Of a DNA stretch of 50,825 nt, positions 28,022-48,216 are shown piece after piece. The translations under genes were made by a program, and so were the position numbers. The notes under the pieces were generated by a model. It saw nothing but the letters and a program-made list of their open reading frames with translations, had not been told where the DNA came from and made no database searches. Source of the stretch: a phage; the sequence record PZ452600.1; one strand, 5' to 3'. Position 1 is the stretch's first letter. Every line of letters starts with the position of its first letter.

Positions 28022-28065
28022 ATAGCATTTTTTGTTAAAACAGTTTATTGTAATGAGTCTATTAT
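28022..28065 (+). promoter_or_regulatory. box cassette (putative phage promoter) upstream of helicase
   Basis: ATAGCATTTTTTGTTAAAAC 28022-28041, N18, TATTAT 28060-28065; in divergent intergenic region. Confidence 0.5.
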
Positions 28066-28097
28066 ATACTCCAAATGGCATTTTTTAAAGGTTTAAG

Positions 28098-30095
28098 ATG
28101 ATTCCAAATATCGAAAAACAAATATCAGCGTTAGGCGAGGCAGTAATAAAAAGCATCCAAGAGCGATTCACGGTTGGCAATATAGTGCCTTATCCTTATC
28201 AGTGCGTTGCGTATGCCGAGATCGCAAAGCGCATGAAAAACTATGAGCATCCTTTCTTTGTTAAGGCTTCTGTGTCGGCTGGCAAAACATTGATGTTTGC
28301 GATGGTTGCGGCGCAATGCCGAAAAATGGGATTGAAAATGATGGTCCTTGCTCGCCAGGCTGAAATTGTTGATCAGGATTCGGAAGAGATCAGCAATCTT
28401 GGAGTGCCAAACTCAATCTATTGCGCCGGACTGAAAACAAAAAGCGCATACTTTCCGATCGTGGTCGGTTCTGAGGGCACTGTAGTAAACGGATTGTTTA
28501 AGTCGTTAGGTGATTATGTTCCGCACGTTATCGGTATTGATGAATGTCACCAGGTGGATTGGGAGGATCTCGCGGACGCGATAGAAAATAATGAATCTTA
28601 CCAGCAGATGACCACTAAGAAGGATTTGCCAGTACTGATTGGAGAAGAACAGCAATTTGATTCCAATGGCGATCCAATGTTCGGAACAGGACGCACACAG
28701 TACACCGTAATAATCATGGAAATGATGCGCAGGTGTCGCGAGGCATACGGGCACGAATTGCGAATATTCGGTATGACTGGATCTGAATTTCGCGGCGTGG
28801 TTCCAATACTGGTTGAAGATAAGAACAAAAAGGGATTCTGGCGTGAGCAGGTGACTAACATAGACACAAACTACTTAATCAAATTCGGTTCGGTAGTGCC
28901 AACAAACTTCGGCGACGTAGGCGACCTGGGTTATGACCTTTCAGAGTTCGAAGCCAGTAGCGAGGATGGCGTTTCAGACTTTGACGCTAAAACATTGCGC
29001 AAGATGGAAGAAAAGATCCATCAAGACGCAACAATGACACAGAAAATCATGGCTAAAGTCCATGAGATATGCAAAGACAGGAACGGAGTTTTAGTTACAT
29101 GCGCAGGGGAAAGGCACTGCAAGGAGGCCGCCGCCGCACTGCCGCCAGGCGTTGAATACAGGATCATAACTGGCAAGACTGGAGATAATCAGCGTAAAGA
29201 GTGGCTGAGGGAGGCATACGAGGGAAAAGTAAAATACATCTTCCAGGTACAGGCGCTTACCACTGGCGTTAACGTTCCGTTTTGGGATACTTCGGTAATA
29301 CTGAGAAAGATAGGATCTCTAACATTGCTTATCCAGCTTTTGGGGCGCGGCATGCGACTGCTTAAGCAATGGCACATTGAGCAGGGATTCAAGAAAAAAG
29401 ATCATCTTGTATTGGATTTTGCAGGTACTATGGATGAGTTAGGTGATTTGTATTTCGATCCAATCCTTGAGCAAGCGCAATTCCAAAAGAGATTTACAAA
29501 CGGGAAAGAGCCTAAGACTTGTCCGATATGTGGAACGCTAAACAGCTTTTACGCTCGCCGATGTATGCACGTAGACGATAACGGGAAGCGATGTGAGCAT
29601 TTTTGGACTTACAGAATTTGCGAGGACCAGGTAGATCCGAGAACGAAAAAGATAATCAAGCGCGGTTGCGGAACAAAAAACGACGTAGTGGCGAGAGTAT
29701 GCCGTTGTTGCGATATTTCTCTTGTCGATCCTAACGAGAAGTTAAGCGGTAAGCACTACACCAAAAACGATTGGTGCAACGTTAAATCTTTCCGCGTTGA
29801 TATGACGAAAAACCAGAAAGGAATTATTTTTTGCTATGAGCTTGAGGCCAACGGCGACACGTTCAAGGCATACGAAAGATTTTTCCCTGAGTCAGAAAGC
29901 AACATTTGCCGGACGATATGGAGAAAAATAGCATTGCAGCACATACCGGATCGCAAGATTGCTGGTATGGTGGCGAGCTATAGAAATGCTCGTAAAATAA
30001 TGTCATACGCTCATCACATCATGCCGCCTGTACGCGTAACGCATCGCAAAAACGGCAAAGGTGAGGATAACATTGCAAAACGGGAGTTTGTTTAA
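28098..30095 (+). CDS. ATP-dependent helicase (SF2, DExH-like) with C-terminal zinc fingers
   Basis: Walker A SVSAGKTLM, Walker B/DExH IGIDECHQV, C-terminal CxxC clusters. Confidence 0.8.
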   Translation: MIPNIEKQISALGEAVIKSIQERFTVGNIVPYPYQCVAYAEIAKRMKNYEHPFFVKASVSAGKTLMFAMVAAQCRKMGLKMMVLARQAEIVDQDSEEISNLGVPNSIYCAGLKTKSAYFPIVVGSEGTVVNGLFKSLGDYVPHVIGIDECHQVDWEDLADAIENNESYQQMTTKKDLPVLIGEEQQFDSNGDPMFGTGRTQYTVIIMEMMRRCREAYGHELRIFGMTGSEFRGVVPILVEDKNKKGFWREQVTNIDTNYLIKFGSVVPTNFGDVGDLGYDLSEFEASSEDGVSDFDAKTLRKMEEKIHQDATMTQKIMAKVHEICKDRNGVLVTCAGERHCKEAAAALPPGVEYRIITGKTGDNQRKEWLREAYEGKVKYIFQVQALTTGVNVPFWDTSVILRKIGSLTLLIQLLGRGMRLLKQWHIEQGFKKKDHLVLDFAGTMDELGDLYFDPILEQAQFQKRFTNGKEPKTCPICGTLNSFYARRCMHVDDNGKRCEHFWTYRICEDQVDPRTKKIIKRGCGTKNDVVARVCRCCDISLVDPNEKLSGKHYTKNDWCNVKSFRVDMTKNQKGIIFCYELEANGDTFKAYERFFPESESNICRTIWRKIALQHIPDRKIAGMVASYRNARKIMSYAHHIMPPVRVTHRKNGKGEDNIAKREFV

Positions 30096-30514
30096 TGGCT
30101 ATAACTGATAAAGGAGATTATCTTGAGTTTTACGAAAGAGATCCAACCGACACGAGAAAGGAAGTTAATCACCAGATAGATAGCTTTCAGTGGTTGACTT
30201 ATGCTCATCCTTATTTGCTAGCGTGGCATACGGTAAACGAGAATGAGAAGTCGAAAGTAACGGCGATGATTGATCAGCAGTCCGGCTTGGTTAAGGGGGT
30301 AAGCGATTTCATCATCCTGATTGGTTCAAACGGAAAATACCCCTTTGCAGCGATTGAGATCAAACGAGTTAATAAATCAGGCAAGGGGAAAGCATCACCA
30401 GTCAGCGATGAACAAAAGGCTTTTTTGCGTCGCGTTCGCAGCTTAGGAGGATTCGCTGCGGTCGCCTACGGATTTAATCAGTTTAAGTTAGCTATTGAAT
30501 ACATGCTTAAATAG
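30095..30514 (+). CDS. VRR-NUC-like nuclease
   Basis: TAATG overlap with helicase stop; 139 aa with ...FIILIGSNGKYPFAAIEIKR... suggestive of a PD-(D/E)XK/VRR-NUC core. Confidence 0.5.
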   Translation: MAITDKGDYLEFYERDPTDTRKEVNHQIDSFQWLTYAHPYLLAWHTVNENEKSKVTAMIDQQSGLVKGVSDFIILIGSNGKYPFAAIEIKRVNKSGKGKASPVSDEQKAFLRRVRSLGGFAAVAYGFNQFKLAIEYMLK

Positions 30515-30554
30515 CACTTTTTGTTAAAACTGGCGCGATGGATTGCGCCATAAT
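30511..30554 (+). promoter_or_regulatory. box cassette upstream of Dam-like gene
   Basis: box 30511-30530 overlapping upstream stop TAG; hairpin TGGCGC/GCGCCA; CATAAT 30549-30554. Confidence 0.5.
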
Positions 30555-30594
30555 TCAATAACACGAGATGGCTTTTAATAGCGGAGAAATGAAA

Positions 30595-31320
30595 ATGGCT
30601 AAAGATATTTTAGATAAAGACACATATGACGCATTCGTTAGCTTTGAGCAGTTGGAGAGAGAAACGTTTATAGGAAATGCTCTTGCAACTGGAGGCCATT
30701 ACCAGGCAGTAAAGCCAAATCAATATTATAAGGTAAGCGGCAACCGATACGCTGGAAGCACTACGCCGGACGTTGTGCGCGATATGTGGAGCACGCCTCA
30801 AGAGATCGTGGAGTGGATGGAATCAGAATTTGGTGAATACGATCTCGACGCGGCAGCAAGCCAGGAAAACGCAGTTTGCGAGAAGTTCTACAGCAAGGAA
30901 ACAAATTGCTTAAAGCGTTGGTGGGGTAGCAACAAGCACGTATGGCTTAACCCGCCGTACAGCAACCCAACTCCATTTATCAAGAAAGCAATTGAGCAAA
31001 TGGAGCACAACAACCAAATTGATGTTTTGTTGCCATCCGACAACTCTACAGCATGGTTTTATGAGGCGCAGAAAAACGCGGCTGAAATCATCTGGATCAC
31101 TGGCGAGGTTTACGAAGAGGGTGGAGTAGAATACTCCCGCACAGGAAGAATCGCCTTTGTGTCTGGATTGACTGGCGAGCCTGTACAGGGCAACAACAAG
31201 GGAAGCGTGATTTTTGTCATGCGCAAACTTAAAGAAGGCGAGGAGCAGAAAACGCGATACGTTAAGATCAGCGATATTTGCCCCTCTGTAACCGAACGCC
31301 GCGCGCGCAAACGGAGCTAA
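30595..31320 (+). CDS. DNA N6-adenine methyltransferase (Dam-like)
   Basis: Catalytic NPPY motif (WLNPPYSNP); GGAG 8 nt before ATG 30595; track ORF starts at 30568. Confidence 0.8.
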   Translation: MAKDILDKDTYDAFVSFEQLERETFIGNALATGGHYQAVKPNQYYKVSGNRYAGSTTPDVVRDMWSTPQEIVEWMESEFGEYDLDAAASQENAVCEKFYSKETNCLKRWWGSNKHVWLNPPYSNPTPFIKKAIEQMEHNNQIDVLLPSDNSTAWFYEAQKNAAEIIWITGEVYEEGGVEYSRTGRIAFVSGLTGEPVQGNNKGSVIFVMRKLKEGEEQKTRYVKISDICPSVTERRARKRS

Positions 31321-31324
31321 CACG

Positions 31325-31582
31325 ATGAAAAAAGAGAGAAGCGTTTATTTAAATGAAACTGGCGAGTGGTTGTTATTTCGCGCTATGGTGTGCGATGCAC
31401 TTGATAAAAACCCTAACGTGAAAAAGATGATTGATTGCGATCCGTGGGAATTTTCAAGCGCATTAGATATGAGCTTTGATGAGACAAGAAAACTCCCTCT
31501 TGAAAAATGGCACGAACAAATCAGAAATGATATGCAAGAGTTTGTAGATTCGTGGAATTTTCAGAACGGAATGATCCACTAA
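31325..31582 (+). CDS. hypothetical protein
   Basis: GGAG RBS; 85 aa; stop abuts a box cassette. Confidence 0.5.
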   Translation: MKKERSVYLNETGEWLLFRAMVCDALDKNPNVKKMIDCDPWEFSSALDMSFDETRKLPLEKWHEQIRNDMQEFVDSWNFQNGMIH

Positions 31583-31641
31583 TAGCACTTTTTGTTAAAA
31601 CGCCCGGCATTTTGTCGGGCATAATTATTTCATCGAAACGA
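31582..31641 (+). promoter_or_regulatory. box cassette
   Basis: box 31582-31601; hairpin GCCCGGC/GTCGGGC; CATAAT 31620-31625; second box CATCGAAACGA 31631-31641. Confidence 0.5.
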
Positions 31642-31657
31642 ACGTGAGGAAATGAAA

Positions 31658-31837
31658 ATGGTAGTATATAGCAAGAAAGCATTTGACCAGGCGCAACAAG
31701 CCGCACGCGAGGCGGTAAAAGGTGGAACGAAAAACAATATGCAGCTTGATTGGGGCGCTGCAATGATTCTACTTCGCGTTGCATATGGTCACTACCCATT
31801 AGAATTTGCGGAGGCATATTATAAGCATGAAGGTTGA
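31658..31837 (+). CDS. hypothetical protein
   Basis: GAGG 8 nt before ATG 31658; downstream of cassette 31582-31641. Confidence 0.45.
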   Translation: MVVYSKKAFDQAQQAAREAVKGGTKNNMQLDWGAAMILLRVAYGHYPLEFAEAYYKHEG

Positions 31838-32069: not shown

Positions 32070-32074
32070 GGATA

Positions 32075-32163: not shown

Positions 32164-33279
32164 ATGAAAAATGTAAAAATTACAGATGAGCAATTCAAGA
32201 TCGAACGGGCGGCGGGTAAGACATATAAACAGATCGCTCAAGAGTACGGAATGAATGTGAGAAGCGTCGAGCGTCGCGCGGCGCGACTTGCAAAGCAAGG
32301 CCAGGTATCCACAATTGGAGCGCCTGGTTTTGGCGTTCATGGTGAGTCAGTAATGACTGACAAAGAAGGCAACATAATCCTAAAGTGGACTAAAACCAGC
32401 AAGGATAAAGAGCAATTAGAAGCATTAATGCGCGCAGCAATGGAGGCATTTAGCGAGGAAGTGCCGCGATTAGATCCGGTTCCATTACAGGAGCGCGACT
32501 ATAACGAAACGCTTTCCTTGTATCCGATCTTTGACATGCACTTAGGCGCTATGGCCCATAAGCACGAATGCGGCGAAAATTGGGATACTGCCACGGCAGA
32601 GCGCGTTATGAATAACTTTATCGACTATGCTTTAATGTGCGCACCGGATAGCGAAAAGGCTGTCATCCTGATTGGTGGCGATATGCTGCATAGCGACGGC
32701 CTGGAGGCGGTTACACCTGCAAGCGGTCACGTACTGGATCAAGATAGTCGATATGCAAAATTGGTTTACGTTGCCATCCGTGCAATGCGACGCGCAATCA
32801 ATAAAATGTTGTTAAAGCATAAACATGTTGAAGTCCAGATCGTAGAGGGCAATCATGACCAATCAGGAATGATTTGGCTGCGCGCAGCAATGGCGGCAGC
32901 ATATGAAAACGAGCCGCGCGTTTACGTTGATGTTTCACCTCGCGTTGTGCACCACACGCAATACGGAAAAACTTTCCTTGCGTACCATCACGGGCACACA
33001 GTGCGTAAACCGGAGACTTTGCTAATGATGTGCGCGTCAGATTGGCGGGAGGACTTCGGAAACTCAAAAACGATGTATGCGCACGTAGGGCACTGGCATC
33101 ACCAGACCGTGACAGAAACGTCGCTTGGCATCGTTGAGGTGCATAGCACCCTGGCGGCAAAAGACGCATACGCCGCGCGCGGTGGCTGGAGATCTCGACG
33201 CCGTGCGGCGGTTATCATTTACGACAAAGAGCATGGAGAGGTGGGGCGATTTGTTCACTATCCAGAAATGATGAATTGA
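32164..33279 (+). CDS. HTH domain fused to calcineurin-like metallophosphoesterase
   Basis: N-terminal HTH-like TYKQIAQEYGMNVRSVERRAARLAKQG; phosphoesterase motifs DMHLG, GGDMLHSDG, EGNHD, GHWHH; preceded by GTTAY repeat array. Confidence 0.65.
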   Translation: MKNVKITDEQFKIERAAGKTYKQIAQEYGMNVRSVERRAARLAKQGQVSTIGAPGFGVHGESVMTDKEGNIILKWTKTSKDKEQLEALMRAAMEAFSEEVPRLDPVPLQERDYNETLSLYPIFDMHLGAMAHKHECGENWDTATAERVMNNFIDYALMCAPDSEKAVILIGGDMLHSDGLEAVTPASGHVLDQDSRYAKLVYVAIRAMRRAINKMLLKHKHVEVQIVEGNHDQSGMIWLRAAMAAAYENEPRVYVDVSPRVVHHTQYGKTFLAYHHGHTVRKPETLLMMCASDWREDFGNSKTMYAHVGHWHHQTVTETSLGIVEVHSTLAAKDAYAARGGWRSRRRAAVIIYDKEHGEVGRFVHYPEMMN

Positions 33280-34524: not shown

Positions 34525-34541
34525 TGCCTCCTTTATTTTTA
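34511..34541. terminator. bidirectional terminator after lysis cassette
   Basis: AGGAGGC-TTAAT-GCCTCCT flanked by A- and T-runs; spanin stop codon lies in the loop. Confidence 0.6.
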
Positions 34542-34763
34542 TGCGTCGGGCCACATATGAGTTTCGTTTGTTGGCTTGTTCGATTCGTCGTACTGCCTTA
34601 CTTCAATGCTGCAAGTGTCGCCATACATTTCTGCAATCTTGCGCTCATTTTCAACCGCCGATTGCTCACTCCATCCAAAACCTCTGTCATAAATTGTCGG
34701 GATTTCAGCAGAAGATCCGTTGTCATGATTATATACGCGAACTACTAAAAACTTGCTGGACAT
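34539..34763 (-). CDS. hypothetical protein
   Basis: 74 aa; preceded by box cassette 34784-34843 and AAAGG RBS. Confidence 0.5.
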   Translation of the reverse strand: MSSKFLVVRVYNHDNGSSAEIPTIYDRGFGWSEQSAVENERKIAEMYGDTCSIEVRQYDESNKPTNETHMWPDA

Positions 34764-34783: not shown

Positions 34784-34843
34784 TCGTTTCGATGAAACAA
34801 ATATACCCGACAATAGGTCGGGCGTTTTAACAAAAAATGCTAT
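34784..34843 (-). promoter_or_regulatory. box cassette
   Basis: minus-strand ATAGCATTTTTTGTTAAAAC, hairpin GCCCGAC/GTCGGGT, TATATT, CATCGAAACGA (34794-34784); ATG 34763. Confidence 0.5.
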
Positions 34844-35034: not shown

Positions 35035-35356
35035 CGCCCATCTCCCCTATTCTAGCCATATCCCTGATCCAGTCGTTGCGCATACCATCCAGGCTATACA
35101 ATTCGAATCCGAAAGGCCGCTTTGACGATCCTTTGGACCAGTATTTTCCGCAGACCCCATCTATATAACCAGCCGTCATCATTCTTGCGCAAAATTCCTT
35201 AGATGCAAGGCTGGCGAACATTCGCGGCGTAAGTCCGGCGGCCCGTGCGAGCCGCTCACATTCTCTATGCTGATAGATAAATTTGGCTATGTGCTGCCTG
35301 TTAAACCAGTCGTATGACTCACACCATTTATACAGATCAAGCAAAAACATAATCAT
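34961..35356 (-). CDS. hypothetical protein
   Basis: 131 aa; ATGA overlap with upstream stop. Confidence 0.5.
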   Translation of the reverse strand: MIMFLLDLYKWCESYDWFNRQHIAKFIYQHRECERLARAAGLTPRMFASLASKEFCARMMTAGYIDGVCGKYWSKGSSKRPFGFELYSLDGMRNDWIRDMARIGEMGDDELFQAKANRQDLEALRRKFNIT

Positions 35357-36933
35357 CCCAGCAGTATTGGATTGACAAAAATAACACCATTAATCACACA
35401 AACATAATTTCTTTCTTCCAGCATTGGCAGCAAGTGCCCTTCTATCCTCTTCATTACGCCAGCCTGACCAACGAAAGGTTTTACCTTTCTCGCTGATTCG
35501 TACAGGGCGCGAATATTCAGGATCCCTTTGTTAGCCTTGCCGTGCCTCGTGATCAATTCAATCAATTTACCCATTTCAGCATCATCACCAGCATAACCAG
35601 AAGCATTGGCGGCGCTAATGTATGTTTTGCTCAACTCCTGAAACATGATCAGAGCCTCTTGCATTGTATCTACGTCGATCTCTTTCGACTTCTGCGGGTA
35701 TCCAGCAGGATTAAACCAGTTGCGTATAACATGCAGGACGGAAGCAAGCCTGATCACCTGTTTATCCATTTTACCCAGCGCACCGCGTAACATTGTATGA
35801 GAATACTTTCCTCCGTCTGCAAGATGCGGTTCCATATCCTGGCGAGCAATGTTGAGCACTCGCATAGCTGAACGGCTTATTTTCAGCGATATATTTGATT
35901 CGCTCATGATGTTATGCACCAATTGATAATATTGGGCTTTCAATTCAGAATCCACCGCCTCATAGGTAGAATCACCATTTTCATCAATGAATGAGCGACG
36001 GCCTAAGAATGATTCCTCGCGGACCAACAAAAAACGCTCACTAACACCGATGCCTCGCGATCCAGCGTCCATTATTCCGCTTATCGTTTCATCCTGGGCT
36101 ATAACGCTCATACATCCAAGCGCGCGAAAACTCATATTATTGTCAGCATTAGCGCGGGCAATTGATACGTGACCATTATCCCACGCCTTAAGCACTAACT
36201 CACTGTTAGTCTTCCTTTCGCTATTTGCATAGGTCAAGCCTAACAGACTGTTAATACTTGTTGCTTCATCAGATATTACGGCAAAGTTACCTTGCTTGTT
36301 GTTGATTTTCGCCAAGCCTTCTGGAGTTGTATCTGAAACAGGAAAAGTTATATCACACATTTTTTCCAGCTTTTCCTCCAGATCCTCTTTTTCCTGGTAT
36401 AGAGATTCCATATCAGCGCCGGATCTTTCGCTTTTCATCTCCTTTGCAAGACCTGCCAGCTTTGCCTGTATTTTCTTTCTTTCCTTGCGGCGTTGCTCGT
36501 TGATCTTCTCAACTTCCGCAATCATCGGAGCAATAGCCATGCTGTTGATCGCAGATTTACCAGTTGACGGCGGCTGGCTTGTAACGACGTAAAGCGCAGT
36601 CGGCTGATCGGTTCCGTGATAGTCAACCGTAAAGCGTCCAAGCATAGCGGCAGAAATGCAGCCGATAAAGTGCATGTAAGCCGATGATTCAGGGAATTGA
36701 ACGGATCGCGCAATGCTGCGTGATAACTTGCCGACAACATCAATATCATTACCAAGAGAAATAACGGGGTAGCGATCGTGACCGCTATTCACATCCTTTA
36801 CGTCGCCCCAAAAGCTGGACGACTGGCGATAGCCGTTAGCCTGAATTGATACGCGAACTGGTGAGAGGTTCTGGCTTTCAGCCATAGCGATTATTTGCTG
36901 TGGAGTTAATTTGTTCGTTTCTAATGAAAACAT
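35353..36933 (-). CDS. P-loop-containing protein (DUF3987/primase-associated-like)
   Basis: 526 aa; AAGGAG RBS; P-loop-like PPSTGKS; central charged coiled segment. Confidence 0.5.
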   Translation of the reverse strand: MFSLETNKLTPQQIIAMAESQNLSPVRVSIQANGYRQSSSFWGDVKDVNSGHDRYPVISLGNDIDVVGKLSRSIARSVQFPESSAYMHFIGCISAAMLGRFTVDYHGTDQPTALYVVTSQPPSTGKSAINSMAIAPMIAEVEKINEQRRKERKKIQAKLAGLAKEMKSERSGADMESLYQEKEDLEEKLEKMCDITFPVSDTTPEGLAKINNKQGNFAVISDEATSINSLLGLTYANSERKTNSELVLKAWDNGHVSIARANADNNMSFRALGCMSVIAQDETISGIMDAGSRGIGVSERFLLVREESFLGRRSFIDENGDSTYEAVDSELKAQYYQLVHNIMSESNISLKISRSAMRVLNIARQDMEPHLADGGKYSHTMLRGALGKMDKQVIRLASVLHVIRNWFNPAGYPQKSKEIDVDTMQEALIMFQELSKTYISAANASGYAGDDAEMGKLIELITRHGKANKGILNIRALYESARKVKPFVGQAGVMKRIEGHLLPMLEERNYVCVINGVIFVNPILLG

Positions 36934-36961
36934 TCGTTAGCTTCTCCTTTGTGGGCCGTAA

Positions 36962-37005
36962 ATTTTAACGGCCCAATACTACCCCGTTTTGTCAAAAAGT
37001 GCTAT
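36962..37005 (-). promoter_or_regulatory. box cassette (variant box)
   Basis: minus-strand ATAGCACTTTTTGACAAAAC, N18, TAAAAT inside hairpin GGGCCGT/ACGGCCC; ATG 36933. Confidence 0.45.
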
Positions 37006-37223
37006 TTGATCCGCTCTATTGCAACCAGAAGTCGATCAGGCTGGCGGTCGCTGTAGCACTCTCCTGTAATCCCATCCTTAAACGTAAAGTAAAGCGCCTT
37101 ATGATATGAAAAACCAATCAGCCAACCTACCGCCGTTTTTTTGATGGGCCTGACTATATCGCCAGGCTTGAAAGTCTTTGTGGTAGAATGCGTTACTTTG
37201 TAACGGTTTTCACTGTTTATCAC
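37002..37223 (-). CDS. hypothetical protein
   Basis: 73 aa; overlaps upstream stop; stop codon embedded in box 36986-37005. Confidence 0.45.
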   Translation of the reverse strand: MINSENRYKVTHSTTKTFKPGDIVRPIKKTAVGWLIGFSYHKALYFTFKDGITGECYSDRQPDRLLVAIERIK

Positions 37224-37606
37224 AGATATTTACCCTCAAAAAGATAACAGCCGCCAGCAGAGAATCCGACCTCTTCACGGTACAGGTTCCAGCGGTCGCC
37301 GCACTCATCAAAAACATAACCAGCAATGCTTCCAAGCGGTCGCCCTTTCTCGATCTGGTATCTCTTTCCCTGCTTAAAGTGCTTTTTGCACGGCATGTTA
37401 TGATCTACAAAAGTGCAAAGAACGGTCTTTGTGTTAATGGCGCGGTAATCATCTCGGTTTGCTGGAAGCCAACGGCTACCCTTAACAAGCGTCTTAACCT
37501 GGAACTCTTCCAACTCGATCACATCATTACTTCCTGAAATCTTCTGATAAACCGTTTTAAATCGGCCTTTCATCAATACGTTGGTTTCATTACAGATAAC
37601 ATTCAT
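37220..37606 (-). CDS. hypothetical protein
   Basis: 128 aa; AAAGGAG RBS; downstream of cassette 37626-37679. Confidence 0.5.
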   Translation of the reverse strand: MNVICNETNVLMKGRFKTVYQKISGSNDVIELEEFQVKTLVKGSRWLPANRDDYRAINTKTVLCTFVDHNMPCKKHFKQGKRYQIEKGRPLGSIAGYVFDECGDRWNLYREEVGFSAGGCYLFEGKYL

Positions 37607-37625: not shown

Positions 37626-37679
37626 GTTCGATGTGATTATGCCAGGTTTTTACACCTGGCTTTTAACAAAAAGTGCTAT
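37626..37679 (-). promoter_or_regulatory. box cassette
   Basis: minus-strand box (37679-37660), hairpin GCCAGGTG/CACCTGGC, CATAAT (37641-37636), CATCGAAC (37633-37626); ATG 37606. Confidence 0.5.
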
Positions 37680-39530: not shown

Positions 39531-39597
39531 CCTCGTTTGTTGTCGATGGGTGTAATATACCATTCAGGCGCACATCGCTTTTAACAAAAAGTGCTAT
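39531..39597 (-). promoter_or_regulatory. box cassette
   Basis: minus-strand box (39597-39578), TATATT (39559-39554), CATCGACAACAAACGAGG (39548-39531); ATG 39522. Confidence 0.5.
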
Positions 39598-40034: not shown

Positions 40035-40103
40035 CCTCGCATTCGTTGTCGATGCGTGTAATGTACAGGAATACGAGGATTGAGTTTTAACAAAAAGTGC
40101 TAT
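40035..40103 (-). promoter_or_regulatory. box cassette
   Basis: minus-strand box (40103-40084), TACATT (40065-40060), CATCGACAACGAATGCGAGG (40054-40035); ATG 40026. Confidence 0.5.
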
Positions 40104-40803: not shown

Positions 40804-41057
40804 TTTTTCTTCTCCTGCAATAAGCAAACATCATTGATAAAATCAGCACGGCCCTTAATGTTGCTGATGTGGAACGTCTTTTCAGCGTACAGGCCATCAC
40901 CTTCAATCACGATCATTACGCGAGTCGGTTTATTCACGGGCGCACGAGAAAAGGGTTGGCGCACCGGAAGAAATTTAGTCATCACATCTAGGTTAGACCT
41001 GGCGGCCCTGCAAAATGCATCCGCCAGATCCAAATCATTTTCGGTAATCACCGCCAT
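40791..41057 (-). CDS. hypothetical protein
   Basis: 88 aa; overlaps upstream stop. Confidence 0.45.
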   Translation of the reverse strand: MAVITENDLDLADAFCRAARSNLDVMTKFLPVRQPFSRAPVNKPTRVMIVIEGDGLYAEKTFHISNIKGRADFINDVCLLQEKKKCWM

Positions 41058-41329
41058 TACTTCTTGATCTCCTTACTGATAAATTTCAGCACCTGGCGCA
41101 AGAAAACTTCGTTGTTGATAGTCGCTGGCAATTCTTCTTTCACTTCTTGCGGCAGATAGATATTACCGTGCCAGGTCAAGCAATCGTAGTTAATACGATA
41201 AGAGCAAAGCCACTCGCAATCGTTATCTGCTTCCCATATGCAGAGTTGCAGAACATCGCCAAAATCTTCAACAGTCAGATCCAGACCGTGACGCTTAGCG
41301 AAATTGAAAGTGGTTTTGCTGATGTTCAT
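41057..41329 (-). CDS. hypothetical protein (first gene of leftward early block)
   Basis: 90 aa; CAGGAG RBS; directly downstream of cassette 41347-41408. Confidence 0.5.
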   Translation of the reverse strand: MNISKTTFNFAKRHGLDLTVEDFGDVLQLCIWEADNDCEWLCSYRINYDCLTWHGNIYLPQEVKEELPATINNEVFLRQVLKFISKEIKK

Positions 41330-41346: not shown

Positions 41347-41408
41347 GTTCGTTTCGATGTGTGTAATGTACCCGATCAGGCGGCCTGAGTTTTAACAAAA
41401 AGTGCTAT
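41347..41408 (-). promoter_or_regulatory. box cassette heading the leftward early block
   Basis: minus-strand box (41408-41389), hairpin CAGGCCGCCTGATCGGG, TACATT (41370-41365), CATCGAAACGAAC (41359-41347); ATG 41329. Confidence 0.5.
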
Positions 41409-41437
41409 TTGACGGTTAGCACCAGGATTGTGATCGA

Positions 41438-41530
41438 AATAATCAAAAGTAATCATTCGTAATCAAATCGCGTCAAAATGATGATTGCCTTTGCAAATTT
41501 GATGAGAAAAGTAATCACGTTTAATCATTG
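41438..41530. repeat. iteron-like array of five (G)TAATCA repeats
   Basis: aaTAATCAaaa, gTAATCAttc, gTAATCAaat (10-11 bp phasing), then gTAATCAcgt, tTAATCAttg 40 nt later; non-coding. Confidence 0.5.
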
Positions 41531-41963
41531 GTTGCAGGGGAGATAGTGAAACCTTCCCCTCTTGCCTCACTTTTCCTCCTGGCTGTCAGTGGTTGTTGTC
41601 TTTTGTTCACCACTGTTACCGATTTCAGGCGGCGTGTTTCCGCGCGGTTTTCCGGTGTAGCGAAAACGGAAAAAACAAAGAAAATCCTCTATAATACATT
41701 GAAAATAAAGATTATTTATTTATATATATCTATAATGTTTTCTTTTTGTTCTCACTGTTACAGTGCTTTTTGTTGGTTATGGTGTGGTTGTGTGTGGGTA
41801 TATATGGATAGTTTCGCGCGCGGCGGATTGCATATGTATATATACTTTTTCCGGCGGATTGCGTTAACAGCGTGAACAGAAAAATAACAGCCGCGAAATC
41901 AATAACTTGCGCGTGATTTTGTAGTTTTTCGATATTGGTAACGTTTTGAATACAACAAAAACA

Positions 41964-41991
41964 TTGACACGCACCAAATAGCTTTTATAAT
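41964..41991 (+). promoter_or_regulatory. near-consensus sigma70 promoter for rightward early block
   Basis: TTGACA-N16-TATAAT; GGAGG RBS and ATG 42023 follow. Confidence 0.7.
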
Positions 41992-42487: not shown

Positions 42488-42756
42488 AAAAGGCATTAAT
42501 CAGCGTTTTGGCGGCAATGGCATTCCTGACCGGATGCAAAGAAGATGGCGCGCATGTTGGCAATGTGCAGATGGCTAACCCTGGCGATGACTACAGCGTA
42601 AGGGAGCTATTCACCGCTGACGGTTGCACCGTTTACCGATTCTATGACGATCGCACTGTTTACTTCACCAACTGCAAGGGAACGACTAGCTGGGAAGTGT
42701 CGAAAAGCAACGGCAAAGGCACAACAACAGAATATATGACCGTCGAGACAAAATAG
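42484..42756 (+). CDS. early lipoprotein
   Basis: ATGA overlap; signal peptide with lipobox LTGC (MKKALISVLAAMAFLTGCKED). Confidence 0.6.
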   Translation: MKKALISVLAAMAFLTGCKEDGAHVGNVQMANPGDDYSVRELFTADGCTVYRFYDDRTVYFTNCKGTTSWEVSKSNGKGTTTEYMTVETK

Positions 42757-42812
42757 CACTTTTTGTTAAAACGCCAGGTGCAAAGCCTGGCATAATAGCC
42801 TCATCGAAACGA
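42753..42812 (+). promoter_or_regulatory. box cassette
   Basis: box 42753-42772 contains upstream stop TAG; hairpin GCCAGG/CCTGGC; CATAAT 42791-42796; CATCGAAACGA 42802-42812. Confidence 0.5.
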
Positions 42813-43215: not shown

Positions 43216-43259
43216 ATAGCACTTTTTGTTAAAACTCGAAAACGATAACCAGGCATAAT
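43216..43259 (+). promoter_or_regulatory. box cassette
   Basis: box 43216-43235; N18; CATAAT 43254-43259; stem-loop GGGCGGCACGGCGTCGCCC in leader. Confidence 0.5.
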
Positions 43260-43313
43260 AAATCACATAGGGCGGCACGGCGTCGCCCACAAAACCAATC
43301 AGGAGAAAGCACC

Positions 43314-44117: not shown

Positions 44118-44160
44118 ATAGCACGAATTGTTAAAACTCAAATGTGGGGCCAGGTATAAT
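44118..44160 (+). promoter_or_regulatory. box cassette (variant box)
   Basis: ATAGCACGAATTGTTAAAAC 44118-44137; hairpin GTGGGGCC/GGCCCCAC with TATAAT 44155-44160 in loop. Confidence 0.5.
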
Positions 44161-44190
44161 GGCCCCACTTTCAACGAAGGAGATAAAACG

Positions 44191-44412
44191 ATGTACATTA
44201 GCAAGAAGATGAAATGTGTTTCCGTTAACTATGCTTGCTCTGGCATGTTCAAGCCTGGCGAAATCTATACGGCGCAAAAACTGAAATCATCAACCGGATC
44301 TTTTTACGTGAGCAATAGTAAGGGGCATCGCATGTTCCTGAACGGCGGCGAAGGCACTAAGGTTATGGCACACGCTATGGTAATGGCTGAATTTGAGGAA
44401 GTGAAACAATGA
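44191..44412 (+). CDS. hypothetical protein, tandem paralog A
   Basis: AAGGAG RBS before ATG 44191; paralogous to the next ORF (..FLNGGEGTKVMAH..AEFEEVK). Confidence 0.5.
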   Translation: MYISKKMKCVSVNYACSGMFKPGEIYTAQKLKSSTGSFYVSNSKGHRMFLNGGEGTKVMAHAMVMAEFEEVKQ

Positions 44413-44654
44413 TCATTGAAAACAATTTTCTTTGCGTTAAGAGCAATAGACCATTCTTCACGCCTGGCAAGGTGTACCAGGGCAAGAAGGACACAATAGA
44501 TGGTAACTCTTATCATGTTTACTGCAACAACGGATACAAGTTTTACCTTAACGGCAACAATGGAACTGAGATCGTTGCGTTTGAAAACGTAGTTGCCGAG
44601 TTCGAGCAGATTACAGACGCGGAATTTGAGGAAGTGAAAGATGAAAACAAATAA
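44409..44654 (+). CDS. hypothetical protein, tandem paralog B
   Basis: ATGA overlap; ..FYLNGNNGTEIVAFENVVAEFEQ..EFEEVK matches paralog A. Confidence 0.5.
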   Translation: MIIENNFLCVKSNRPFFTPGKVYQGKKDTIDGNSYHVYCNNGYKFYLNGNNGTEIVAFENVVAEFEQITDAEFEEVKDENK

Positions 44655-44862
44655 GCGCGTCAAGCACAGGTTTACTGATAACCACGGCGACGCGATTGAT
44701 GTATACAAGTTCGGCGATCGCGTGTTTATTGATGGCACGTTTGAAGGTGGGCGTAGGCCGGATTTTAGGTCGATACTTACCGTTGACCAAGTGCGCAAGC
44801 TGGCAGATAAGTTAAATGATCTGGCAGATGAAATAGAATACAAGCAAATCCATTTTAATTGA
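44641..44862 (+). CDS. hypothetical protein
   Basis: 73 aa; overlaps upstream 3' end. Confidence 0.45.
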   Translation: MKTNKRVKHRFTDNHGDAIDVYKFGDRVFIDGTFEGGRRPDFRSILTVDQVRKLADKLNDLADEIEYKQIHFN

Positions 44863-44873
44863 TAGGTTTGATA

Positions 44874-45413
44874 ATGAAAAAATACACTTTCGAACTGTGG
44901 GGCAATAAGTACGAATTAATCACCAGCAAGCCGATTGTTATCGTTGACCTGGACGGCACGCTGTCGGACGGATCGCATCGCTTGCACTTGTTGCCAACTG
45001 AAAACTTGCACCTTACGGAATCGTGGCGCGAGTTTAACAGGGCCGCAGCAGGAGATTCACCGATTAAAAGCACGATCGCGATTGTTAACGGTTTGTGGGT
45101 GTCTGGATTTGCCATCGTCATCTTGACCGGACGCAGCGACGAGGTGCGCTATGAAACATGCAAATGGTTGAATGAGAGCGGCGTGAAGTTTGACGAAATC
45201 ATCATGCGCCGACATGAGGACAACCGAAAGGATACGGTTATTAAAGAAGAAGCCTTGCGCGCTATTGGCCTGGACAATATTGTTTGCGCCTTTGACGATT
45301 CGCCGAACGTTGTTAAGCACTTCCGCAGCCTGGGAATCACAACCTATCAGGTCACGGAATACGACAAGCCACACGCTCACCTGCAATCTCACGGCGTGGA
45401 GTGTTTAAAATGA
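44874..45413 (+). CDS. HAD-superfamily phosphatase (nucleotidase / polynucleotide 3'-phosphatase-like)
   Basis: HAD motif I IVIVDLDGTLSDG, motif II ILTGR, motif IV FDDSPNVV; ATG 44874 (track start 44859 is TTG). Confidence 0.65.
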   Translation: MKKYTFELWGNKYELITSKPIVIVDLDGTLSDGSHRLHLLPTENLHLTESWREFNRAAAGDSPIKSTIAIVNGLWVSGFAIVILTGRSDEVRYETCKWLNESGVKFDEIIMRRHEDNRKDTVIKEEALRAIGLDNIVCAFDDSPNVVKHFRSLGITTYQVTEYDKPHAHLQSHGVECLK

Positions 45414-45571
45414 CTTGGTTGCTTTTAATCTTTGTCACAAGTTACAACTCCGCAGCTATTGAGTCGCAGGAGTTCCACGGCGAATCAAGATGCCAGGAAG
45501 CGCGAAAGCAAGTTGTTCTCCACATGTCAGATAGTGGGAAGGATGTAACAGCGTTATGCGTTCGTAAATAG
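45410..45571 (+). CDS. small secreted/membrane protein (53 aa)
   Basis: Not in ORF track; ATGA overlap with HAD stop; hydrophobic N-terminus MTWLLLIFVTSYNSAAIES; stop TAG embedded in box 45568-45588. Confidence 0.4.
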   Translation: MTWLLLIFVTSYNSAAIESQEFHGESRCQEARKQVVLHMSDSGKDVTALCVRK

Positions 45572-45612
45572 CACTTTTTGCAAAAAACAGATTAACGGGC
45601 TTGCGGTATAGT
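45568..45612 (+). promoter_or_regulatory. box cassette (variant box)
   Basis: ATAGCACTTTTTGCAAAAAAC 45568-45588; hairpin GGGCTT/AAGCCC with TATAGT 45607-45612 in loop. Confidence 0.45.
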
Positions 45613-45643
45613 AAGCCCATCAACAACAAGCGAGGATTAAATC

Positions 45644-45907
45644 ATGGCTAACAAGATCGAATTTTTCAAAGCGGTAGACATTATTGATGGCGCGCCTAGC
45701 TTCTTTGCCATCCATTCTATTGACGGCAAGGATATTGGGTACAACGTTATCCGTCGAGATGGAATCTCAAAACTTAGTGACCTGGTAGGTCATGTTGTGG
45801 CGAACGGGAAATGTGCATGGCCCGATTCGCCGCGAGAGCCGCGCCGCCGCGACATGGTAGAGCCTGTTCTGCTTTACACTCTGGTAGTAGAAGGAGAAAA
45901 TAAATGA
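45644..45907 (+). CDS. hypothetical protein
   Basis: GAGG RBS; downstream of cassette 45568-45612. Confidence 0.5.
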   Translation: MANKIEFFKAVDIIDGAPSFFAIHSIDGKDIGYNVIRRDGISKLSDLVGHVVANGKCAWPDSPREPRRRDMVEPVLLYTLVVEGENK

Positions 45908-46089
45908 TTTGGTTACTTGCTTTTTTGGTTGTTTTTCTTTACATTTCAGGCTTGTTTACGTTCCGCGCGTTGGTGAAATATTCTGACGCGACAGACAAAG
46001 ACGATAAAATCGTTCTCGCTTTCTGGTTTGTTTGGGTGTGGTTAGCAATTTACGAGATCATCAGAGACAAACAGAAATTTGATTGGTGA
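45904..46089 (+). CDS. small membrane protein
   Basis: ATGA overlap; two hydrophobic helices. Confidence 0.45.
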   Translation: MIWLLAFLVVFLYISGLFTFRALVKYSDATDKDDKIVLAFWFVWVWLAIYEIIRDKQKFDW

Positions 46090-46145
46090 TTCTTGCTATG
46101 GCGCATTCATGCAGTGCGCCATGTTGAGAAAACCTAAAGGGGGAA

Positions 46146-46289
46146 ATGATGCGTAACTTTGAAAAAATCGTTACCAAAAAGAAGCGTCGCGGATACGATG
46201 AGCATGTAGAGTTTGTGAACAAGCAACGCAAGAAGCGCCATAGACGCGAAATGCTGCATAATATCAACTCACGCTATGGAGATCATTAA
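46146..46289 (+). CDS. small basic protein (47 aa)
   Basis: Not in ORF track; AGGGGGAA RBS; Lys/Arg-rich (KKKRRGY...KQRKKRHRRE). Confidence 0.35.
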   Translation: MMRNFEKIVTKKKRRGYDEHVEFVNKQRKKRHRREMLHNINSRYGDH

Positions 46290-46291
46290 TC

Positions 46292-46882
46292 ATGAAGCGA
46301 GACATTATCATCCTTAATGGGCCGCCAGGCTGCGGGAAGGACACTATTGCAGCTTACCTAACGGGCCATCGTTACCCTGCTGTCAAGGCGTCATTCAAAC
46401 AGCCGATGTTCGATATTGCTTTTTCTATGCTGGGCGTGTACCGATACGATGAATTTATGGACCTGTACAACGACCGAGAGCAAAAAGAAAAGCCTCAAGT
46501 TATCTTAGGAGGCAAGTCACCTCGACAATTCATGATCTGGATTAGTGAGGATGTAATGAAGCCAGTTTTTGGGGGTCACTATTTCGGGCGTCGCATGGTT
46601 GAAGAGATTCACGAGATGTACCGAGATTTAGCGGTTGTGATCAGCGATGGTGGATTCCCCGAAGAAATCAAGCCGCTTGTTAAGGCAGGGCATGAAGTGC
46701 ATATTTGCCGATTGCATCGCGACGGCTTCACGTTTGCTGGCGATTCGAGAGACTACATTGACCTGAGCGGTTATCACTATCGAATCCATCACTATGATTT
46801 CCACTTGCAGGAAGGTAAGCCGGAACTGGCTGTAAGCGAGATCGTCAATGCAGTCAAATGGAAGCACACACAGATTAAATAG
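46292..46882 (+). CDS. P-loop nucleotide/nucleoside kinase
   Basis: Walker A IIILNGPPGCGKDT at N-terminus; 196 aa. Confidence 0.65.
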   Translation: MKRDIIILNGPPGCGKDTIAAYLTGHRYPAVKASFKQPMFDIAFSMLGVYRYDEFMDLYNDREQKEKPQVILGGKSPRQFMIWISEDVMKPVFGGHYFGRRMVEEIHEMYRDLAVVISDGGFPEEIKPLVKAGHEVHICRLHRDGFTFAGDSRDYIDLSGYHYRIHHYDFHLQEGKPELAVSEIVNAVKWKHTQIK

Positions 46883-46922
46883 CACGAATTGCTAAACGCG
46901 GGGTTATCGGCCCCGCTATAAT
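46879..46922 (+). promoter_or_regulatory. box cassette (variant box)
   Basis: ATAGCACGAATTGCTAAAC 46879-46897; hairpin GCGGGG/CCCCGC; TATAAT 46917-46922. Confidence 0.5.
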
Positions 46923-46952
46923 GCTCACATCAACAAGTAAGAGGAAATCACA

Positions 46953-47333
46953 ATGGTTAACATCCGAAAAATCCGCGTCGGCACTAAATTCTTAGTTACT
47001 TACGCAATTCCAGATAGCGGAATGAAGAAGGGCCAGATTGTTAAGGTTGATAGCAAAAGATTCGGAATCCCTGGTATCAATGGCTATCTAATCAATAAAG
47101 ATCTTGGATTCGGCGGCTTCGCTATCCGTTCGCTTGAGGGTATTGTTGTTACCCTCAAGCAAATCACTAACCATCGCGGCTGCCCAATCAAGACGATTAA
47201 AGCGCCAACCAATTACGGCAAACTGGATAATCGTCGAATCCGACGCCTGGCGCGTAACGCGTTAAAATTCCGTGGCGTAGGCGATGATTTCTACTATGGA
47301 TACAAGAGGATTGCGCGCAATGCTGGGAAATAA
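46953..47333 (+). CDS. hypothetical protein
   Basis: AGAGGAAA RBS; downstream of cassette 46879-46922. Confidence 0.5.
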   Translation: MVNIRKIRVGTKFLVTYAIPDSGMKKGQIVKVDSKRFGIPGINGYLINKDLGFGGFAIRSLEGIVVTLKQITNHRGCPIKTIKAPTNYGKLDNRRIRRLARNALKFRGVGDDFYYGYKRIARNAGK

Positions 47334-47432
47334 CAATAACGCAACGAATCCTAAGCCACCTTTTGATTTTCATTCCGCAATGATTGCGGTATTATCAATG
47401 CTACTTTTTCTTTATAGCATGAGGGCGCTACT

Positions 47433-47681
47433 ATGGTTTTTAACGCATTGAAACGACTGTTTAAGCCGGAATACCGGATCGTATTTTGCCGAGACTGTTC
47501 TACTTATCATGTGCAGCGACGCAGCTTAGGCGGCAATTGGCACTATGTTACAGACGACTTTTTCGGCATCATTGCCACTGAATTTAAGTATTACAGCGAT
47601 GCTTATATGTACGTCAAGAAGCGCCACCGCTTACGCAAGTGTCGTTTTTCCGTGCTGATTCACGTTAATGATTGTTACTGA
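47433..47681 (+). CDS. hypothetical protein
   Basis: GAGGG RBS; 82 aa. Confidence 0.45.
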   Translation: MVFNALKRLFKPEYRIVFCRDCSTYHVQRRSLGGNWHYVTDDFFGIIATEFKYYSDAYMYVKKRHRLRKCRFSVLIHVNDCY

Positions 47682-47688
47682 GGTGAAA

Positions 47689-47871
47689 ATGAAAACTGGT
47701 ATTATTATTCTTTTCCTGATCCTTTTCGGCAGCCATTTAACCATTAACTATGAGGGCATTATGGCCTTTTGGGGCAACTTGATGATGTTTGCAGCTGGTT
47801 CGATTGCTGGCTACTCTGACGGGAAAAAGGATGGCGTTCGCAAGATGCTGATGGGACTTAAACAAAAATAA
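47689..47871 (+). CDS. small membrane protein
   Basis: GAGGTGAAA RBS before ATG 47689; hydrophobic helices. Confidence 0.4.
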   Translation: MKTGIIILFLILFGSHLTINYEGIMAFWGNLMMFAAGSIAGYSDGKKDGVRKMLMGLKQK

Positions 47872-47882
47872 GGGGATCTGAA

Positions 47883-48173
47883 ATGGCAAACAAAACTTAC
47901 CGCAAACTACTGGTTAACGCTTTTGAAAACATCGCGCAGTGTAACAAGTGGAACGACTCTAAACACTCGCCAATCACAATGAAGCGCGCCGGATTCAAAA
48001 ATGCTCGTTCATGGGCGCGAGCTTTCGCAGCTTGCTATATGCCGGATGGCGGACTAGGGGTGATGAACGATTTTTTGATCAACATGATAGAGGAAGCGGC
48101 GCGAGAGGATCGACCGCTGACACAGCGAGATTTTGACGACTTCGCGCGCGATGAGCTTTACTATCTGAGCTAA
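47883..48173 (+). CDS. hypothetical protein
   Basis: AAGGGG RBS; 96 aa; stop abuts box 48173-48192. Confidence 0.5.
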   Translation: MANKTYRKLLVNAFENIAQCNKWNDSKHSPITMKRAGFKNARSWARAFAACYMPDGGLGVMNDFLINMIEEAAREDRPLTQRDFDDFARDELYYLS

Positions 48174-48216
48174 TAGCACTTTTTGTTAAAACTTCCGCAA
48201 GGGCATTTGGTAAAGT
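48173..48216 (+). promoter_or_regulatory. box cassette
   Basis: box 48173-48192; hairpin AAGGGCA/TGCCCTT; TAAAGT 48211-48216; GCGAAAC box in leader. Confidence 0.45.

Follow-up and report, generated by a model that had tools for sequence, protein, structure and literature searches.

What is the short DNA element that stands ahead of gene after gene in the early region of a T1-like phage, and how are these genes switched on? T1-like phages encode neither a sigma factor nor a polymerase, and T1 gene timing has been a puzzle since the genome was sequenced. The 50,825-nucleotide phage sequence PZ452600.1 (hereafter the window, meaning the whole stretch of DNA analysed) raises this question, as a first reading of its letters and open reading frames (ORFs), here called the original prediction, had picked out at least 16 modular cassettes between positions 28022 and 48216, each made of a 20-nt box, a variable GC hairpin and a -10-like hexamer. 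We find that the box is a consensus match to the marbox, the asymmetric 20-bp site of the monomeric AraC-family activators MarA, SoxS and Rob (and RamA in Klebsiella), each with a pair of helix-turn-helix (HTH) motifs. The best-supported reading of the cassettes, to which we assign a probability of roughly 0.6, is that they are class II marbox promoters.

Over 93-98% of its length, the early region (28000-48300) shares 96-98% identity with the Escherichia phages Tuinin, vB_EcoS-95, tonn, tunus, swan01 and FritzSarasin, and the major capsid protein is 100% identical to its JLBYU01 counterpart. By these matches the window holds all, or nearly all, of the genome of a virulent T1-like coliphage, a siphovirus of the Drexlerviridae. 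Its structural genes occupy the + strand from position 1 to ∼19.5 kb, and two divergent blocks of early and replication genes extend over ∼20.7-50.8 kb.

A published repeat in a fixed cassette

Searched with the query ATAGCACTTTTTGTTAAAAC at up to three mismatches, the window gave 16 matches against none in 100 shuffled sequences, and a position weight matrix separated 20 clear copies (scores 23-35) from the noise (12 or lower; shuffle maximum 16), which bears out the predicted box. Sixteen copies, nine on the + strand and seven on the - strand (Table 1), have the full build, in agreement with the nine rightward and seven leftward copies first described, even though one of them, ahead of the Cor gene at 20724, falls outside the range 28022-48216. 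The total in the window is 20 rather than 16, as four further boxes lie at late-gene starts in a different layout.

In the full build, the box is followed after 17-19 nt by a hexamer of the form (C/T)AnnnT, then by 6 nt, an A as the predicted start and an A/C-rich leader (ATCGAAAC). The hexamer is found in all 16 cassettes, at 18 nt in 13 of them, 17 nt in two and 19 nt in one, which upholds the distance of the original prediction. The leader conserved after the start A reads ATCGAAACGA or ATCAACAAC and leads to a Shine-Dalgarno sequence (SD) and the start codon, so that the box begins at a near-constant distance of ∼76 nt 5' of the ATG; the starts predicted in this way are 28072, 30561, 31632, 42803, 43266, 44167, 45619, 46929 and 48223 on the + strand and 20694, 34793, 36955, 37629, 39547, 40053 and 41358 on the - strand. 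Also as first noted, the box is tied to the end of the preceding gene: in 14 of the 20 copies the stop codon of the same-strand upstream ORF lies inside or abuts the box, either as a TAG within it or as a TAA that overlaps or touches its first A.

A survey of related phages, suggested at the outset as a check, found the same cassette in T1, TLS, Klebsiella phage KP36 and Rogue1, that is, in four Drexlerviridae lineages. Over these four genomes and the window (the five-genome set), a TAnnnT begins at offset 18 after 53 of the 91 boxes, the background being 1.4% for any one position. Pooling the five genomes with fragments from IMG/VR, where the matches of our pattern scan are mostly fragments, yielded 271 unique cassettes, 237 of which have the 18-nt spacing. 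Within the pooled boxes, G4, C5, A6, T12, G13 and A16-18 are near-invariant, whereas positions 9 and 10 vary almost solely between A and T, positions 2, 7, 14 and 15 almost solely between C and T, and position 8 is free. An A occupies +1 in 82% of the cassettes, a G stands at -14 in 82% and a TG at -15/-14 in 40%; such bases would help a promoter that has no -35.

The box itself has already been published. The 2024 re-annotation of TLS (PMC11447400) describes a 21-nt direct repeat (DR1-DR18), aaATAGCACnnnTTGnTAAAA, with a count of 21 copies, oriented with transcription, located ∼76 nt 5' of start codons, divided into T, G and A subtypes, and recorded also in T1, Rtp and Rogue1. Consensus, orientation, distance and subtypes identify it as the same element. 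Having found only three sigma70-type promoters in TLS, its authors left the function of the repeat undecided between stoperator, enhancer site and UP element (PMC11447400), and they cite 'transcriptons' and 'enhancers' described for T1 (Roberts et al., 2004, as cited in PMC11447400). The fixed -10, the marbox match and the hairpin registers, all three described here, are not reported in that paper (PMC11447400), and the marbox reading appears to be new. Nothing relevant came up in the literature on the sequence of the box, on transcription start sites in Drexlerviridae or on transcriptomes of T1, and no paper linking a marbox or MarA/SoxS/Rob to T1-like phages was found in a search that left most subscription journals outside.

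A marbox match in class II position

The MarA consensus gcannwwntgnnaaa, derived from chromatin immunoprecipitation and used by Grainger's group (PMC12052159), is matched perfectly at 19 sites of the window, where 1.36 would be expected. All 19 are boxes, accounting for 19 of the 20 copies. The stricter form AYnGCACnnWnnRYYAAA, which over 20 bp reads AYnGCACnnWnnRYYAAAYn and is reportedly the marbox consensus of Martin and colleagues from 1999, matches 15 times, 13 of these being boxes of the family, against 0.09 expected. Moreover, the variation among the 271 cassettes tracks the degeneracy of the marbox consensus through its W and Y classes, position 19, which is A and not Y, being the sole deviation; positions 1-3 and 11 are near-invariant although they are 'n' in that consensus.

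The TTG of the box is the TG of the marbox and therefore not a displaced -35. Indeed, from TTGnnA to the hexamer there are 22 bp, in support of the earlier judgement that this distance is too long for a sigma70 -35/-10 pair; at a 17-bp spacing the 271 cassettes have a mean of 1.80 matches to TTGACA, and canonical sigma70 pairs are not enriched in the early region (33 found, 36.3 expected). A canonical sigma70 promoter with TTGnnA as its -35 was rejected on this spacing and this lack of enrichment.

At class II promoters of the marbox regulators, the marbox is in forward orientation, overlaps the -35 and clusters near -41, the -35 is not recognisable (mean of 1.9 matches), and the -10 and the start are canonical (PMC10268841, PMC8811837). 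For comparison, we read four host promoters from the MG1655 genome (NC_000913), placing the marboxes of nfo, inaA and fumC ourselves against the consensus. In micF, the marbox ACAGCACTGAATGTCAAAAC is followed after 18 nt by TAGAAT, with the annotated +1 putting the centre of the box at -41.5; with our placement, the distance to the -10 is 18 nt in nfo and inaA and 18-19 nt in fumC. All 16 full cassettes of the window carry the box as micF does, forward, with GCAC distal and AAA proximal to the -10, spanning -50 to -31 with a predicted centre at -40.5. They combine an asymmetric marbox in forward orientation, a position near -41 and 17-19 nt from the -10, a poor -35, and a -10 of the form TAnnnT or CAnnnT. 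The likeness extends to the host class II promoters micF, fumC, nfo, inaA and lpxC P2 as a group (a 20-bp asymmetric forward marbox, 18(-19) bp to the -10, a centre near -41). The phage set differs in packing about 16 putatively activating copies, all near consensus, into 50 kb, while host marboxes are degenerate, and only in the phage is the box fused to an upstream stop codon, joined by a covarying hairpin in the spacer or discriminator and followed by a conserved transcribed leader.

From the observed sequence, geometry, conservation and covariation we infer a graded set of properties. It is very probable that the cassettes function as promoters, and MarA, SoxS or Rob would likely bind the box in vitro; that early transcription depends on these proteins in vivo has somewhat better than even odds. 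Such a cassette would be a sigma70-dependent class II promoter in which the activator, bound to the marbox at about -41, replaces the missing -35 contact and recruits the host RNA polymerase to a good -10, often preceded by a G or TG at -14/-15. Transcription would start at the conserved A, the seventh base beyond the hexamer, and give an unstructured A/C-rich leader, with Rob as the constitutive activator and MarA and SoxS adding to it under stress.

Alternatively, RNA polymerase alone could use the -10, with the box serving as an UP-like or -35-like contact for sigma or for the C-terminal domain of the alpha subunit (alpha-CTD), which contacts the A/T-rich tract at -40 to -60 known as the UP element. 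T1-like phages are generally known to grow well in unstressed cells, and the frequent G and TG ahead of the hexamer make basal activity without a -35 plausible; an UP-element analogy has also been proposed for TLS (PMC11447400). Set against this, the 22 bp between TTGnnA and the -10 put it out of phase with sigma region 4 by half a helical turn, an invariant GCAC is unlike the A/T tracts of UP elements, and 13-14 positions strictly kept over four subfamilies exceed what alpha-CTD demands, so that we hold factor-independent promoters to be improbable. The UP element as such was rejected on the invariance of GCAC and G13.

The concept of a -10 without a -35 that is rescued by an upstream-bound activator is shared with the T4 MotA/AsiA and Mu Mor/C promoters, and the original prediction had drawn an analogy with such middle promoters. 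The MotA box, with the consensus (a/t)(a/t)(a/t)TGCTT(t/c)A, has its centre at about -30 and depends on two phage proteins, MotA and AsiA. The analogy fails for MotA on position, as the box lies at -50 to -31, and a MotA box was rejected on sequence as well; neither MotA nor AsiA had a match among the 20 proteins scanned. Mor and C bind dyad sites and MotA another sequence, whereas the site here matches that of a host regulator of which no homologue was found in the phage. A sigma54 promoter (TGGCAC-N5-TTGCA), brought to mind by TAGCAC...TTG, was likewise rejected, since the box lacks the GG, has the wrong spacing and is followed by a conserved -10.

Host or phage reader

A profile of MarA, SoxS and the N-domain of Rob, run against 2779 six-frame ORFs of the five-genome set, found no homologue (best E 0.08), and the activator is therefore most likely a host protein. 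Of the original proposal, the part that stands is a likely promoter with a -10, no usable -35 and a need for a box-bound protein, which fits class II geometry; the suggestion that this protein is encoded by the phage is probably wrong, given the consensus marbox and the missing homologue.

Relatives beyond the family offer a further view. In the Pantoea myovirus PSKM (Dibbivirus, NC_048767; 48% capsid identity), whose head and replication genes are T1-like, there are eight cassettes of this same build, with hairpins inside the spacer (32556, 35446, 37293, 39694, 41518, 43537, 44506 and 46290). As in the other dibbiviruses, AAM37 and the 'Xanthomonas' phage DIBBI, the box is followed by 18 nt with a GC hairpin and by TA(A/T)TAT, and T1-like head and replication modules are present; in contrast to the window, these phages are myoviruses and encode a MarA-sized AraC-family protein of their own. 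In PSKM this is gp47 (36886-37296), a protein of 136 amino acids (aa) that matches the MarA profile with an E of 1e-13 and whose stop codon abuts a cassette. Such genes are rare in phages: homologues of gp47 turned up in 23 of 50,697 records, and Dibbivirus was the sole group of T1 relatives to have them. By alignment, the first recognition helix of gp47 is unlike that of MarA and may not read GCAC alike, so the co-occurrence of cassettes and a MarA-like protein is suggestive of an AraC-family reader but not proof of one. The distant Vibrio phage 12E36-1 (24% capsid identity, non-enteric host) has no box, with one consensus match found against 0.7 expected, which is weakly informative.

Besides the helix of gp47, several points weigh against a host regulator of the MarA type. 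Rob is the only constitutive member of the group, MarA and SoxS being scarce in unstressed cells, and most of the Rob in the cell, although it is abundant, stays sequestered unless bile salts, decanoate or dipyridyl induce it; T1-like phages, for their part, grow very fast in plain broth. To our knowledge, classical T1-resistance genetics turned up fhuA and tonB but did not yield rob. Compared with host marboxes, the boxes are more uniform, as they would be with a more specific phage binder or after a recent spread of the element, and our literature search found no mapped 5' ends, binding data or genetic data for T1-like phages.

Two phage proteins come into question as readers, the marbox likeness then being convergent or competitive with host regulators. 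One is the Cro/YdaS-like HTH regulator (27534-28010, phrog_2856), annotated as a 'transcriptional regulator' at the same position in T1, TLS, KP36 and Rogue1. The leader of this regulator itself contains a box, and the promoter predicted for it (TTTAAA-17 nt-TATAAT, - strand, -10 at 28062-28067) overlaps the -10 of the helicase cassette on the + strand, an arrangement kept in all four relatives that is typical of autoregulatory switches and looks like a mutually exclusive one. The other is the Metallophos 'DNA repair exonuclease' (32164-33279, + strand), whose N-terminus has a weak Sigma70_r4_2/HTH_28-like HTH match (E 0.0018) that the annotators of KP36 recorded as well. The uniformity of the boxes speaks for such a reader too, and an immediate-early factor could be supplied from the sigma70 consensus promoter at 41964. 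On the other hand, an asymmetric box without dyad is unusual for a Cro-like dimer, the sigma-r4 match is below the Pfam threshold, and agreement with the marbox at all specified positions but 19, with variation confined to its degeneracy and with the spacing of micF, would be a large coincidence. We consequently think a phage-encoded reader unlikely, and a host activator of the MarA/SoxS/Rob group remains our preferred candidate. Sequence searches of the PDB with the regulator and with the DUF7174 early protein gave nothing informative.

Two registers of covarying hairpins

Hairpins were assessed in 17 cassettes of the window (the 16 full ones and the - strand box at 9946) and in 82 cassettes of the five genomes, against shuffles that keep the hexamer. 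Eleven of the 17 fold far better than their shuffles; over the five genomes the mean minimum free energy is -10.05 kcal/mol against -4.08 for shuffles, with z < -1.64 in 56 of 82, and a third of the cassettes have no stem. The GC hairpins of the original prediction are therefore genuine and enriched, but they lie inside the spacer, where it had placed them, in only about half of the cases. The registers are bimodal, with i+j at about -17 or about -1 and almost nothing between. In class A, the spacer contains the stem, with the 3' arm ending at the hexamer's first base; in class B, spacer positions -24 to -19 pair with the six bases 3' of the hexamer, i.e. the discriminator (-6 to -1), leaving the -10 in the loop and ending the stem exactly at -1.

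Pairing is kept while the stem sequences change, as had been claimed. In the class B register, 47 of the 271 cassettes pair over all 6 bp, against a mean of 4.6 (maximum 10) with permuted 3' arms, and they do so with 19 distinct stems, for example AAGGCC/GGCCTT, GGGGTA/TACCCC, AACGTC/GGCGTT and GAGTGC/GCACTC. In the cassette at 48173, comparison with the cassettes of T1, TLS and KP36 that have the same loop and build reveals compensatory changes in the stem.

The positions occupied by these registers are exactly those that are free in a class II promoter, which is why we read the hairpins as a separate function overlaid on it. They would form a second, independent layer at the end of the upstream transcription unit, terminating it leakily or stabilising its 3' end, confined to the sequence-free 18-nt spacer and the 6-nt discriminator, and being squeezed in there would account for the two sharp registers. 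A transcript begun at +1 does not contain the hairpin, which could thus act only on read-through RNA from the upstream gene. Several cassette hairpins are indeed annotated as rho-independent terminators in the GenBank records of T1 and KP36, and class A stems run into a T-rich -10 and discriminator. By a T-tail criterion, those at 31582 and 34824 are terminator-like in sense and that at 44118 in antisense only (2-3 of 17); most hairpins, including the class B stems, have no U tract. They are probably RNA 3'-end or terminator elements of the upstream unit, and 'RNA processing or termination modules', the other option of the original prediction, suits this part of the cassette, not the box.

Taken for the whole cassette, that option would make the elements non-promoter modules (stoperator-like sites, terminators, RNase or roadblock elements) marking gene boundaries in long early transcripts. 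The stop codons abutting the box, the covarying hairpins, the terminator annotations in T1 and KP36 and the stoperator idea raised for TLS (PMC11447400) are all in its favour. It nonetheless leaves unexplained the fixed 18-nt TAnnnT, the start A, the leader and the ∼76-nt distance; the cassettes of the divergent regions at 28022 and 41389 have no upstream gene, most hairpins are without U tracts, and the phage is virulent with no repressor known. We regard it as very improbable. Stoperators in the sense of mycobacteriophage L5 are asymmetric repressor sites inside the transcription units of a temperate phage; they were rejected since the boxes stand at a fixed distance from a -10 and not inside units, and neither a CI-type repressor nor an integrase is annotated in the relatives.

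Two other uses of the spacer were also discarded. A MerR-type or cruciform shortening of the spacer is at odds with the differing stems and the stemless third of the cassettes, and extrusion would leave too few base pairs. The TAAAAC inside the box could be a -10 for a transcript with a 5' hairpin, but its last base is never T.

A separate complementarity was noticed at 40053-40103 (- strand), between ATCCTCG in the spacer and CGAGGAT at the SD of the gene downstream (leader to ∼40026). The ribosome binding site could thereby be sequestered in read-through RNA, though not in RNA that begins at the cassette; it is a single case and may be chance.

Boxes at late operon starts

Five late operons (portal, major capsid, tail chaperone, tail tip and tail fibre genes) have a box at their start, placed where binding would be expected to hinder and not to help. 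The clearest layout is that of the major capsid promoter, whose 16-nt spacer is a reversed box. Its relatives read TTGACG-16 nt-TATTAT in T1, TTGAAC-16 nt-TATATT in TLS and TTGACG-16 nt-TATCCT in KP36, where the box has decayed and the promoter is a GenBank feature. The predicted start is within the 5' arm of the terminator at 6218-6239, so that upstream transcripts would stop there and new ones could not form the full stem; such an overlap of terminator and promoter is also seen at 1586-1618, ahead of the portal gene.

The arrangement at the tail assembly chaperone is the same in T1, the portal box has no activating geometry, and the tail-fibre box, one mismatch away from the marbox consensus, is at the same position in T1 (34902). 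A marbox within the promoter spacer is known to repress pbpG (PMC12052159). The box in the spacer of the capsid promoter resembles this case, and other boxes lie in the leaders of late genes; the differences are that these are phage late promoters and that box orientation varies. The comparison suggests that the same protein may activate early and repress late promoters, covering their core elements or leaders.

On its own strand, the box at 9946 is followed at 18 nt by TAGATT and then by the bidirectional terminator 9884-9902, so this cassette, if active, would yield an antisense RNA of only 30-45 nt. An AT-rich 15-bp hairpin is also predicted at 9914-9946 (- strand).

Table 1. Cassettes, boxes and associated regulator in the window. 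Spacers of early cassettes are 18 nt unless given.
Feature	Coordinates	Strand	Box	-10 hexamer	Hairpin	Further details
Cassette of SF2 helicase gene 28098-30095	28022-28072	+	28022-28041 (ATAGCATTTTTTGTTAAAAC)	TATTAT 28060-28065	absent	predicted start ∼28072
Cassette of Dam methylase gene	30511-30561	+	30511-30530	CATAAT 30549-30554	class A, in spacer, 30531-30550, -12.1 kcal/mol	predicted start ∼30561; TAG of box is stop codon of VRR-NUC gene
Cassette of 61-aa gene 31652-31837	31582-31632	+	31582-31601	CATAAT 31620-31625	class A, 31602-31620, flagged terminator-like	T-rich -10 and discriminator follow hairpin
Cassette of 74-aa gene 34539-34763	34793-34843	-	34824-34843	TATATT 34800-34805	class A, 34805-34823, flagged terminator-like	
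Cassette of DNA helicase gene 35353-36933	36953-37005	-	36986-37005 (TTGACA variant)	TAAAAT 36962-36967	class B, 36953-36974, -13.3 kcal/mol	-10 within hairpin loop
Cassette of 128-aa gene 37220-37606	37629-37679	-	37660-37679	CATAAT 37636-37641	class A, 37641-37660, -14.0 kcal/mol	TGg before -10
Cassette	39547-39597	-	39578-39597	TATATT 39554-39559	weak or none	TGg before -10
Cassette	40053-40103	-	40084-40103	TACATT 40060-40065	no local hairpin	
First cassette of leftward early block	41358-41408	-	41389-41408	TACATT 41365-41370		ahead of 90-aa gene 41057-41329
Cassette	42753-42803	+	42753-42772	CATAAT 42791-42796	class A, 42773-42791, -13.4 kcal/mol	
Cassette	43216-43266	+	43216-43235	CATAAT 43254-43259	none at promoter	GC hairpin in longer leader
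Cassette, GAA type	44118-44168	+	44118-44137	TATAAT 44155-44160	class B, 44144-44168, -19.4 kcal/mol	spacer 17 nt; -10 in hairpin loop
Cassette	45568-45619	+	45568-45587 (TTGCAA variant)	TATAGT 45607-45612	class B, 45597-45618	spacer 19 nt; -10 in hairpin
Cassette, GAA type	46879-46929	+	46879-46898	TATAAT 46917-46922	class A, 46898-46916	
Cassette	48173-48223	+	48173-48192	TAAAGT 48211-48216	class B, 48199-48222	-10 in hairpin
Cassette of Cor superinfection-exclusion lipoprotein gene 20400-20669	20694-20743	-	20724-20743	TATAGT 20701-20706		spacer 17 nt
Portal box, TAA type	1566-1618	+	1566-1585, forward	TATAAT, 4 nt after box	terminator 1597-1618	box holds TerL stop codon; portal gene downstream
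Major capsid late promoter	6186-6239	+	6193-6212, reversed (on -)	TATCAT		TTGCAC, 16 nt, TATCAT; spacer is the box
Tail assembly chaperone leader box	9946-9965	-	9946-9965, reversed	TAAAAT	terminator 9884-9902	directly 5' of SD, downstream of terminator and -10
Degenerate tail-tip J leader box	15877-15896	+	ACAGCACAAAAGGTTAAAAG	TATAAT	terminator 15827-15843	after terminator and -10; equivalent to DR8 of TLS
Tail-fibre box	26460-26479	+	26460-26479, reversed relative to flanking genes			directly 5' of SD of tail-fibre gene 24469-26466 (-)
Cro/YdaS-like HTH 'transcriptional regulator' (phrog_2856)	27534-28010	-	28022-28041, in its leader			

A tentative temporal programme

Taken together, the early and late boxes allow for a scheme, tentative and on the doubtful side, in which a single stress regulator of the host governs the whole temporal programme. 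Rob, helped by MarA, SoxS or RamA when antibiotics, oxidants or bile stress the cell, would activate the ∼16 early class II promoters and repress the late promoters of the five operons named above, whose spacers or leaders carry a box; replication would then multiply the ∼20 high-affinity boxes per genome and titrate the few thousand activator molecules, turning early genes down and late genes on.

If this is true, infection efficiency would depend on the mar/sox/rob state of the host, including that of multidrug-resistant clinical strains with mar or ramA up. If the marbox reading holds, a whole family of virulent phages, therapeutic Klebsiella weberviruses among them, would tie its early expression to the regulon of efflux resistance, which would bear on phage-antibiotic synergy and on the choice of clinical host strains. 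The marbox reading makes the function of the repeat directly testable, and the cassette, which fits a putative promoter and activator site, a stop codon and an RNA hairpin into 50 bp, would be a compact natural example of use for synthetic design.

Other features of the early region

A perfect sigma70 consensus promoter, TTGACA-16 nt-TATAAT, lies at 41964-41991 (+ strand); no other match in the early region reaches 12/12. Standing at the head of the rightward early block, directly 5' of the DUF7174 gene, it is a candidate immediate-early promoter that probably works independently of an activator. An Rfam scan of the whole window gave zero matches at the gathering score.

Between the divergent early blocks, positions 41409-41990 form an AT-rich stretch of ∼580 nt without a convincing gene; the ORF 41528-41875 within it has no Pfam or PHROG match. 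The stretch is probably the counterpart of the T1 genome-end, pac or origin region, and it contains GTAATCA-type direct repeats (41437-41460 and 41509-41532), a CGGCGGATTGC repeat and TATATA palindromes.

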